NCBI GenBank assembly: GCA_031372065.1
Contig: JANMKN010000202.1
Coordinates: 1-18,983 of the forward strand
Length of the DNA: 18,983 nt
Reading direction: 5' to 3'
Source: Abditibacteriaceae bacterium
GTDB lineage: Bacteria > Armatimonadota > Abditibacteriia > Abditibacteriales > Abditibacteriaceae
A program made the position numbers. This document shows, one piece after another, positions 12,001-15,000 of the stretch. Position 1 is the first letter of the stretch, and the number at the start of each line of letters is the position of its first letter.

Positions 12001-15000
12001 CGGTTTTCGACGACCAAGTGCTATTTGATTTAAACAAGCAATATCAAAAAGACAAAGCCCTAAATAAGCCACCCAGTGCGGTATTGAGTTTGTATTTTGT
12101 CGGCAATTACATTCCGCAAAAAACCGGCTATCATGCCTTTTTAGGCCATTGGGCCGAAACTTTGGAATTCAAGCGCAAATCCGCCGAGGTTCACGCATTT
12201 TATCAAGGACGAATGCCGCGCGCCGAAGCATTGGAATGGCTGCATAAAAATCACATTCGCTATGTGTTTTTTGGTTTTTATGAGGCGCATTTATTTTCGT
12301 CAAACCAGCCGCTACACGATTTGTTGGGCAAGTCAATTATCTATCGTGGCCCAAACGAAATGGAATCTTCTAACAATCCCTCAGCTGTAGTGTTTGAAGT
12401 GCCCGACAAATAAAAAAAGCCAGCGCGAAATCTGATTTCGCGCTGGCTTTTTTTATTTTTGCAGTAGGCCGAGAGGGATTTGAACCCCCAACCAAGGCAT
12501 TATGCTTACCACTACAACTTTCGTTGCCTTTCGTTTGTGGTCTGGACTATCTCTTCTCTTTACGAGTCTCCCGTTTAGTCTCTGCACCTTCCATTTCTGG
12601 CTTGGCTCAGGATTACCATATCTTTCGATTTAGGCTTCCCTGAATTTGAGAGATTCTATCTCAGAACTCAACATTATGAACCGTGTCATAATCTGCGATT
12701 CCAAGACAACCCATTCAAAGGACTATATGAACTGTTCTGTCTGCGGGACGCCTCTTAAAGGCAAACAAACCAAATACTGCTCGAAGCAATGTAAGTTTAA
12801 ATCTGACAACAACCGAAATCAGAATTATACAAAGCAACAAGAACGAGGCCGTAAAAGAAAACTCTCTTTGATAGAGGCGGCGGGTGGTAAGTGCTGCCTT
12901 TGTGGTTATTGTAAAAACCCCAATGCTTTATCCTTCCACCACTTAGACCCAGCCAAAAAGAATTTCAATTTGGACATCAGAAGCTGCTCTAATAAAACCG
13001 TTGACAGTTTGAAAAAAGAAGCCTCTCAATGTATTTTGGTGTGCTTAAATTGTCATGCAGAAATTCACAGCGATAATCCTCCCTCTTGAGTGCCCTGCTC
13101 TAACCCTTGAGCTATCGGCCCCTTAGCGCCAATTATTCTACCAAACAAAGAAGCGAACGGCAGGATGCTCGATGCTCGATAGTGAAAATCCTGCATCCTG
13201 CCTCCCGATTCACTCTTCGCCAAAAGCATCGGCGAGCGGCGTGCCTTGCGTGCGGCGGCGCAGTTTGCGCAAGGCACGGACTTCGAGTTGGCGCACGCGT
13301 TCGCGTGAGATTCTCATCTGCAAAGCCACATCTTCCGGTGTTTGCGCGCCATCATCGGCATAGTCACCGATGCCAAAACGCTTGCAAATTACCACGCGTT
13401 CGAGGCCGGACAGAGTTTCGAGAGCGTGCCCTAATTCCGTATGCAATTCGCTGCGCGAAACGCGAATTTCAGTTTCGTCGCCTTCGCCGCCCACAATGTC
13501 AGAAAGCTCCATGTGTTCGTCGTCCCCAACGGGCGAATCAAGCGAAAGCGGCTGCATAGAAGCGCGCATCGCTTCTTCCACGAGACTGAGCGGTATCCCA
13601 GAGGCTTCGGCGATTTCGATGCGCGAGGGAGAACGCCCCAAATTTTGCGATAATTCGCCTTGCACGCGGCGCACTTTCTGCATTACCGCATAAATATGTC
13701 CCGGCAAGCGCATCGAACGCGCTTGGTCGGACATGGCGCGATTAATGGACTGACGAATCCACCACGTCACATAAGTGCTAAGACGTTGCCCGCGCTCAGG
13801 GTCGAAGCGCTCGACGCCGCGCATCAGGCCAATCATGCCTTCCTGCACAATATCCAGCATTGGCAAAGTGGTGCGATCACCGTAGCGGCGCGCCACGAAA
13901 ACAACAAGGCGCCAGTTGGCCTCGACTAATTTTTGCTTCGCTGTTTCCTGCTCTTGTGGCGAACCATTTTTCACCAAAAGCGCCATGCGATGCTCTTCTT
14001 CAGGCGAAATGCGCTCAAATTGCGCCATGCGCTGCATATATTGCTTGTAGGCGTCCTCGACGGGGCGGCTATCGAAATCTTCGTCGTCCAACGTTGAAGG
14101 AGGCGCGGCGCCAGCGGCGAGAATTTCCTCCCAGTTTTCAAGGCGCGTCGCCATGATTTCTTCGAGTGAATTAATTGAGGCCAAGACATCATCCAAGTCA
14201 CTGTTGGCGTCATCTTTGTCAGCGCTCTTGTCAGCGACTTTTGCGATTTTTTTTGGTCGCGCGGTAGCTTTTGGCGCTTTGACTTTGGGGGTTGTGGCCG
14301 GACGCGGCTCGTCCACAACGGCAATGGCGCGTTCGTCCAGCGCCTCGAAAAGTTCTTCGGCGGCCAGTTCATCGAGCGCCAAATCGCCCAGCAGTTCGTT
14401 AATTTCTTCGTATGATAAGCGTCCGGCCCGCGCGCCGCGTTCGATAAGGTCAAGCACGCGCGGTTCTTCCAGAAGCGGTTTTAATGGTGAATTCACACCT
14501 CAGATTTTACCGCAACTTCGCAAGCTTCGACTGCCTCTGCACACCAGTTCCAAGCCTGCCACAATTTCTAACATTGTGAAGCGTTGGCGACACGGCTATA
14601 ATTAATAGGCTTTGGAACACGGTTCTGGGAATCAGTGGGTCAGAGCAATTTTTGAATGGAGCAAATGACTCGCTCATGCCGCAAGATAATATCACCGAAT
14701 TGAAAAAGCGCGTGCCCGGTGGCAAGTATGCCTTGGCCCGTGCCCTCGCCGAACGTGCCCGCCAGTTGCAAAACGGCGCCACGCCCCTCACTGCCGTCAA
14801 AGTCGCAAACCCACTATCCACCGCCATCGAAGAAATTCTCGAAGGCAAAGTGACCTTCGATTTTAAAAACGAAGAAGAAACCAAAGCGGCGATAGCCAAC
14901 GAAGCCGCCAAGTTGCTGACTTAATCGGTTGACTTGAATCGCGCCGTTCGCTGGAATTTGCAAAGGCCGACTCTTAACAAATCGTGCCATTTTCAGGGTC

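Follow-up and report, generated by a model that had tools for sequence, protein, structure and literature searches.

A group I intron with an antisense HNH-type gene in the anticodon loop of a probable tRNA-Ile2(CAU) gene of an Abditibacteriaceae bacterium

A tRNA gene with anticodon CAU, encoded on the minus strand of contig JANMKN010000202.1 of an Abditibacteriaceae bacterium (genome G000; the window is this contig over its full 18,983 nt), is split by an intron between positions 33 and 34 of its anticodon loop. With a probability of roughly 0.78, we consider that this element works like a homing-type group I intron in a tRNA-Ile2 gene. As read from the sequence, the pre-tRNA would fold a canonical P1 with a U33.G pair, closed across a 360-nt loop, and then P2 to P9, and splicing after U33 and after omega-G would restore the CAU anticodon; splicing is presumably essential and would be followed by lysidine formation by TilS. 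Opposite the ribozyme strand, the L1 loop encodes a conserved protein, and both ends of its gene double as the P1 extension helix. This HNH gene would have its own antisense transcript, driven by a promoter in the P2 region, with translation directed by a Shine-Dalgarno site; such an arrangement may free nuclease expression from the strong promoter of the tRNA gene and keep ribosomes off the folding ribozyme. The protein would nick or cut Ile2 alleles that lack the intron, close to their anticodon arm, repair would copy the intron together with its gene, i.e., homing, and the element would cycle through gain, gene loss, and intron loss. The gene lies in a peripheral loop, is conserved, and is optional among relatives, the features by which an intron-encoded homing endonuclease is recognized. 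Coordinates are given in Table 1.

Table 1. Positions in the window of the split tRNA gene, its predicted ribozyme helices, and the antisense gene
Feature	Position	Strand	Basis
Probable tRNA-Ile2(CAU), 5' exon, G1 to U33	13089..13121	-	ARAGORN and exon joining
Group I intron, 584 nt, IC3-like core, terminal omega-G at 12505	12505..13088	-	Rfam and ARAGORN
Probable tRNA-Ile2(CAU), 3' exon, C34 to A73, CCA unencoded	12465..12504	-	ARAGORN
Candidate extended -10 promoter of the tRNA gene, TG-N-TAGAAT	13135..13143	-	Read from the sequence; inferred, absent from the promoter-scan list
Two-way intrinsic terminator between the tRNA gene and a convergent membrane-protein gene	12411..12455	.	Terminator scan
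P1, 5' strand: A31 C32 U33, then intron C1 A2, extension strand 13081-13073; opposite strand carries the last HNH codons and stop	13073..13091	-	Cofold
P1, 3' strand: extension 12726-12718, internal guide 12714-12709 (U33.G12711, C32-G12710, A31-U12709; P10 with exon 2 CAU)	12709..12726	-	Cofold
P2 with extension hairpin	12657..12708	-	Folding
Ribozyme core: P3 12653-12648/12572-12567, P4 12644-12639/12611-12606	12505..12653	-	Rfam alignment
Ribozyme core, continued: P7 12582-12576/12549-12545, short P8 12566-12556		-	
Ribozyme core, 3' part: P9.0 12541-12537/12512-12508, P9 12527-12514		-	
Antisense HNH-type endonuclease gene, 120 aa, in the L1 loop	12727..13089	+	Start shared with G002, N termini of relatives, profile and fold matches
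Shine-Dalgarno-like AAAGGA, 4 bases before ATG, complement of the P1 extension 3' strand	12717..12722	+	Inferred
Candidate extended -10 of the antisense transcript, TG-N-CATAAT (TATAAT in G002), inside the P2 extension	12684..12692	+	Weak; absent from the promoter-scan list

Run without its intron option, ARAGORN returned zero tRNAs in the whole window, and with that option it mislabelled the split gene as Leu(caa). The joined exons form a 74-base tRNA(cat) with the loop CU-CAU-AA, which the same program accepts, and U33/omega-G is the sole cut in the loop that leaves a U before the intron and a G at its end. Both the joined exons and this splice-site reading bear out the preliminary description of a 584-nt intron after U33 with a terminal G. 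The exons given there (13121-13089 and 12504-12463) stand except at the 3' end, which ran 1 to 2 bases too long, the discriminator A73 being at 12465.

By its catalytic-core match, the U.G pair in P1, omega-G, and P10, the element is, at the level of sequence, a group I intron. The Rfam Intron_gpI match (RF00028) reported earlier at 12525-12739 on the minus strand with 67.3 bits was reproduced against a cut-off of 50, a second run giving 64.5 bits. The core contains IC3-type elements (P5a, P9.0, and a GNRA-capped P9) and may resemble the IC3 introns of tRNA-Leu and Azoarcus; its helices are named here by analogy with IC3 introns. In both G000 and G002, the minimum-energy cofold pairs A31 C32 U33 and intron bases 1-2 with 12713-12709, U33 standing opposite G12711, and forms the P1 extension helix. 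Relative to G000, two P2 wobble pairs and one P1-extension wobble of G002 have become Watson-Crick pairs. In 39 introns inserted at 33/34, the guide sequence varies with exon base 31, with GGU in 15/17 ACU exons and GGC in 19/22 GCU exons; these counts were made by hand, from picks that maximize pairing in about two clades and with locus L063 left out (P4 not found), and they serve as support rather than as a statistic. The introns of G014 and G024 have a mismatch at exon base 31. Since the guide for U33 lies at 12714-12709, the nuclease gene sits in the P1 loop. Pairing of the exon end at 12671-12666, with U33 opposite A, was rejected, as that stretch is the P2 3' strand and the cofold picks the guide instead. 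The fold of 12505-12726 alone was uninformative (z -1.73).

All three states suggested earlier for the family (intron with gene, intron without gene, and no intron) were found. Among 41 genomes searched by DNA, four carry the intron, with the gene in G000, G002, and G024 and without it in G014, and 16 have the uninterrupted allele; RF00028 exceeded its cut-off in the same four of 27 family genomes. In the 290-nt intron of G014, the ATG of the gene is retained and followed after seven codons by the stop, as if the interior of a G024-like gene had been deleted. On the UvrA tree, the carriers form two patches: G000 and G002 in one genus among the empty G001 and G003, and the sisters G014 and G024 in another. 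One anticodon arm is common to all four carriers and occurs in only 2 of the 16 empty alleles, which may reflect target choice or co-conversion; the arm type of G004 and G020 is identical to it.

The element had also been described as still mobile within Abditibacteriaceae, a claim that these data do not sustain. The nearest carrier is G002, at 91% identity, which is also nearest to G000 by uvrA dS (0.64 versus 0.85 to 0.96), and the pS of the HNH gene between the two (0.32) is not significantly lower than that of uvrA (0.43; Fisher p 0.10). A single family clade was likewise not rejected: the intron cores already form one (87/80), in tests from which the 36/37 cores were left out, and the proteins gave p-AU 0.29. 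With a divergence from the G002 copy not significantly below that of uvrA, the element fits inheritance and shows no trace of recent movement; within this genus, it seems to have been present already in the ancestor of G000 and G002 and not to be a new acquisition. The tRNA locus lies downstream of a sigma-factor gene in G000, G001, and G003, whereas the tRNA and intron of G002 are in a different neighborhood, which calls simple inheritance into question.

Nor is the layout special to Abditibacteriaceae. A GTDB scan identified 537 relatives, of which the best 80 loci were examined. In 32 of these, a 33/34 intron of a CAU tRNA contains the gene in antisense orientation (Acidobacteriota, Chloroflexota, several Patescibacteria groups, and one Armatimonadota record, L061); 15 have the gene outside an ORF-less 36/37 intron (Gammaproteobacteria), and four have it inside a 36/37 intron in sense orientation (Bacteroidota and Rhodothermota); five were other cases, and for 24 no split tRNA could be parsed. 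The 3' end of one locus, L079, is uncertain (651 versus 631). Among the antisense genes in 33/34 introns, 9/34 look broken, and these together with the 32/80 loci sharing the layout are as a homing cycle predicts. In Armatimonadota, 37 of 401 genomes encode a relative; the 30 loci examined there comprise six intron-borne genes (three outside Abditibacteriaceae), one beside an Ile2-like gene, and 23 beside intact tRNA genes.

Monophyly of the Armatimonadota proteins was rejected (p-AU 0.009) for a group that was named after the trees had been seen and that includes the long free-standing row L169; that of the Armatimonadota intron cores was not (p-AU 0.137). From these comparisons, transfer of the element between phyla at some point is likely. 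The 36/37 cores form a clade separate from the 33/34 cores (100/99, with a long-branch warning), and in the protein trees the G000 copy is a deep, separate lineage on a long branch among the antisense 33/34 copies. Sequences with fewer than 95 aligned residues were dropped from the protein trees, leaving 62 of 82 loci in one and 34 of 38 in the other. L061, the intron of which repeats that of L004 in the printed parts, was left out of all trees and of the start-site and broken-gene counts.

These genomic settings also bear on another reading, in which the intron splices and the HNH gene is a selfish nuclease gene associated with tRNA genes in general that has found a safe site in the P1 loop. 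Selection would keep the gene, yet it would not mobilize the 33/34 intron, either because its target is another one or because homing has ceased. The target of the protein need indeed not be the intron site, because the family so often stands free beside intact tRNA genes in Armatimonadota, and the genes outside or in sense orientation within 36/37 introns among the best GTDB loci, as well as the lack of visible recent movement between G000 and G002 in the HNH and uvrA divergences, point the same way. We nevertheless regard this reading as unlikely: the closest, i.e., top-scoring, relatives lie within Ile2 genes or next to them, P1 incorporates both ends of the gene, the intron has a patchy distribution over the host tree, and broken and deleted copies exist. 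Homing remains the preferred interpretation for the G000 element. Its extension to a multi-phylum family of active homing elements in an essential tRNA-Ile2 gene has, in our estimate, slightly better than even odds. Such elements would produce a 120-aa HNH enzyme from its own antisense unit, with promoter, ribosome site, start, and stop on the reverse strand of P2 and P1, and the enzyme family would move among three homes (antisense at 33/34, sense at 36/37, and free-standing by tRNA genes). If true, this three-home reading would open to direct test how nuclease genes invade introns.

The spliced cloverleaf has C4-G69, C5-G68, G27.U43, and A73; in the available text of PMC2500205, measurements in E. 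coli make C4-G69 and C5-G68 TilS determinants and G27.U43 a mark of Ile2. Two further CAU tRNAs, Met and fMet, are encoded in G000 (contigs C168 and C317), the fMet gene on C317 being uninterrupted, and TilS is present with 177.6 bits, above its cut-off. Separate Met and fMet tRNAs also accompany the uninterrupted orthologue in G003, G004, G011, and G012, and the fMet tRNA of G001 is assembled only in part. The assignment to tRNA-Ile2(CAU), proposed earlier by elimination, is therefore supported by the Ile2 marks in the sequence, the separate Met and fMet tRNAs, and TilS. No tRNA with a UAU anticodon occurs among the ARAGORN tRNAs of G000, the assembly of which is 94% complete, so that a second Ile2 gene could be absent from it. 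G000 contains 4203 AUA codons, spread over 1686 of its 2447 long ORFs; because this codon is so widely used and no other AUA-reading tRNA was found at this completeness, splicing should be essential.

Were the split gene instead a second elongator tRNA-Met, splicing would be dispensable. ARAGORN does label the joined tRNA Met(cat), and its nearest E. coli match is labelled tRNA-Met in RefSeq, where the labels do not separate CAU types; as they lump Met with Ile2, E. coli annotation was rejected as a test of tRNA type. This reading is very improbable in view of the three Ile2 marks, the distinct Met and fMet tRNAs found beside the orthologue in G000 and four other genomes, and the failure to find a UAU anticodon in G000. 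A CAU-tRNA pattern search of the 27 family genomes was discarded, its control being as frequent as the signal.

On the plus strand, a frame of 137 aa is open from 12676 to 13089, its TGA (13087-13089) consisting of intron bases 1-2 and U33. The gene originally proposed took up this whole frame; the conserved gene is the shorter one of 120 aa. The ATG at 12676 lies within the P2 helix and is absent in G002, whereas that at 12727 is common to G000 and G002 and agrees with the N termini of database relatives; starts at 12676 or 12646 were rejected on comparison with the carriers and those N termini. Between G000 and G002, dN is 0.077 and dS 0.42 (dN/dS 0.18; Fisher p 2e-7), with 24 of 44 changes at third positions, and the gene is, by this measure of sequence change, under purifying selection. 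A real antisense HNH-type gene in the intron, as first described, is borne out by this ratio. The G+C content of the gene region is 41%, compared with 53% for the genome.

The protein combines an N-terminal CxxC..CxxxC zinc motif with a C-terminal CxxC..FHH..CxNCH nuclease domain, and FHH and CxNCH are invariant in 15/15 aligned sequences. The previously noted Pfam HNH match was reproduced under its cut-off (E 0.0013; 19.3 bits against 21.4), and the best match among the sequences of solved structures has an E value of 0.006. An AlphaFold model of the 120-aa protein has a pLDDT of 91.5, and its best fold matches are HNH nucleases, all of them weak (Foldseek E 0.047; VIA Z 4.1, rmsd 3.8 over 62 residues). 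The family comprises 3614 representatives at E 1e-10 or better; 284 phage records are among the relatives, and phage relatives with 34 to 43% identity are annotated as HNH endonucleases. Each of these tests being weak by itself, sequence and model suggest a resemblance to HNH nucleases. The promoter scan listed no plus-strand promoter upstream of 12727. A Shine-Dalgarno-like site precedes 9 of 25 intact antisense genes, the G000 copy being led by one as are the Acidobacteriota copies, and 13 of 25 (Chloroflexota and Patescibacteria) instead have a -10-like box 5 to 8 bases before the ATG and look leaderless. That the frame is a silent relic, held open as a by-product of RNA structure, as the lack of a scan-listed promoter could imply, is scarcely credible against a dN/dS this low over 120 codons, invariant Cys/His motifs, and a confident AlphaFold model.

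Contigs from four of 20 sequencing runs were compared with the stretch; none comes from G000, the libraries possibly contain DNA, and none among the pieces listed spans the whole stretch. From RNA library X17, a 151-base contig of a relative, of depth 2 (7 differences, ~95% alike), joins omega-G to the guide region in a 214-base back-joint. The contig may derive from a full-length circle of an ORF-less relative or from a jump of reverse transcriptase over a 4-base repeat, which is shared between exon 2 and the guide, sites that P10 brings together. A 218-base contig of X6 covers only 12502-12714, and one of X13 runs over 12511-12784. An exon-exon contig of X13 was rejected as splicing evidence, its foreign flanks identifying another organism, and a search of metagenomes for an ORF-less relative by an 18-base intron pattern gave 11 matches, all 11 by chance.

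Several known systems share parts of this architecture. The I-Ssp6803I gene of the Synechocystis PCC 6803 tRNA-fMet intron lies in P1 in sense orientation. That intron (fMet.2Ug) resembles the G000 element in its CAU tRNA, its insertion at 33/34 (position 2 in the main text of Williams 2020, bioRxiv 10.1101/2020.01.27.920355), its similar size (655 nt, with an enzyme of 150 aa, in the available text of PMC1995217), and its internal nuclease gene, and differs in that its host is fMet rather than Ile2 and its enzyme is PD-(D/E)XK rather than HNH-like. The Azoarcus BH72 pre-tRNA-Ile(CAU) intron (Ile2.5Ug, IC3), which forms circles in vitro according to the accessible part of PMC13168695, shares the host tRNA type, a probably IC3-like core, and a short exon side of P1; unlike the G000 intron, it is inserted at 36/37, after U36, and has no ORF. 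A nuclease gene opposite the ribozyme, in a peripheral loop and expressed from that strand, is described in the portion seen of PMC3679873 for Didymium Dir.S956-2 and nuclear rDNA introns. These are eukaryotic introns of subgroups IC1/IE with His-Cys box enzymes, which PMC1995217, as far as available, places only in nuclear introns. HNH nucleases in group I introns are familiar from phage DNA-polymerase genes (I-HmuI, I-BasI, I-PfoP3I, and phiL7 gp45) and are nicking homing enzymes in the accessible text of PMC3428280; the hosts there are protein genes. The phiL7 gp45 gene is in sense orientation relative to its host gene, and the literature searches did not confirm an antisense HNH gene in a T7-like phage intron.

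The main text of Williams 2020 (bioRxiv 10.1101/2020.01.27.920355) describes 21 classes of tRNA introns, those longer than ~400 bases of which 'may contain' genes, and classical tRNA introns as IC3. Enzyme type and strand of intron genes are absent from that main text, and its table may already catalogue insertions at tRNA-Ile2 33/34. In the open-access literature, including the accessible parts of PMC1995217, PMC3679873, PMC3428280, PMC3984707, PMC11878797, PMC2500205, and PMC13168695, we found no description of an HNH or antisense gene in a bacterial tRNA intron, and an open-access search for Armatimonadota, group I introns, and tRNA returned no paper. Antisense nuclease genes in nuclear introns and a nuclease-bearing 33/34 intron in cyanobacterial tRNA-fMet are already known; the antisense-HNH layout in bacterial tRNA introns was not found described in this literature.

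In the literature found, seen in part, the one bacterial tRNA intron with a nuclease gene is that of I-Ssp6803I, and nuclease genes in antisense orientation are listed only for rDNA introns of eukaryotes. The G000-type layout joins the two, a tRNA-intron nuclease and an antisense nuclease gene, and is common in GTDB. Its interest is lowered by a textbook mechanism and by an activity that is a prediction. For annotation, the tRNA-Ile2 gene of genomes with such introns is overlooked or labelled tRNA-Leu by ARAGORN. If active, these elements would be a source of very small nucleases specific for a site in a conserved tRNA arm and a natural example in which a ribozyme and a protein gene with its signals use the same bases on two strands, and Abditibacteriaceae would display all stages of the homing cycle within one bacterial family.

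The sigma-factor gene that adjoins the intron-bearing tRNA-Ile2 gene in the window is not its neighbor everywhere in the family. In G002, another genome that carries the intron together with the HNH gene, the intron-bearing tRNA lies away from the sigma-factor gene (loci L196 on contig G002:C15 and L194 on G002:C8), and its likeness to the window does not reach beyond the tRNA gene itself plus some 20 bases of upstream sequence. We read the G002 context as a rearrangement or a transfer of the whole tRNA locus. The inverted repeat in the window could be where transcription of the sigma-factor gene stops, or where the antisense transcript ends.

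Coordinates of features in the window and at the insert-bearing loci
Feature	Position	Strand	Remark
23S rRNA gene, 5' end	window 1-453	-	at contig edge
UvrA-like gene	window 4634-7780	-	presumed identity, recognised from sequence
10-bp inverted repeat	window 13159-13204		between sigma-factor gene and tRNA promoter
Sigma-70 factor gene	window 13210-14496	-	
BioD/BioF-like genes	window 16468-18915	-	presumed identity, recognised from sequence
49-base insert loci	L197 about 1490-1620 (= G241:C116:45090-45230), L198, L199, L200		
HNH relative in G241	L169 / L197, G241:C116:45271-45612	opposite to tRNA	

Group I introns occur elsewhere in the family. Both carriers in genus g2 have a second one in tRNA-Leu(UAA), the classical group I intron site (G014:C35, L129; G024:C136, L130), and the 23S rRNA genes of G009 (L126), G018 (L127) and G016 (L128) contain roughly 300-base group I introns that score below the Rfam cut-off.

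Relatives of the window's HNH protein are likewise found in several settings. Sense-strand members of this protein family open Ile2 introns inserted at position 36/37 in Bacteroidota and Rhodothermota (L089, L092, L093, L096). In Patescibacteria, tRNA-Asn(GUU) and a tRNA parsed as UGU appear to be split by group I introns that contain or adjoin HNH relatives (L105, L116, L120, L121). At all 23 loci with more distant relatives of this kind (L170-L192), the adjoining tRNA gene (Phe, Arg, Thr or Pro) is intact.

Within one genus of the window's phylum, a tRNA-Ile2-like gene is split between A35 and U36 by a 49-base insert in four of five genomes. Its sequence is identical across G241, G335, G054 and G205, near whose inserts a motif test found no group I core; the fifth genome, G375, lacks it. 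Directly upstream of the insert-bearing gene, in G241 only, an HNH relative is inserted (49% identity to the window's HNH protein). Judged by eye, the insert is a tRNA-like minihelix comprising a 7-bp acceptor-like stem and a 5-bp T-arm whose loop has 7 bases; our guess is that tRNA-processing nucleases and a ligase would excise it. The novelty of this insert possibly exceeds that of the tRNA-Ile2 intron with its antisense HNH gene.
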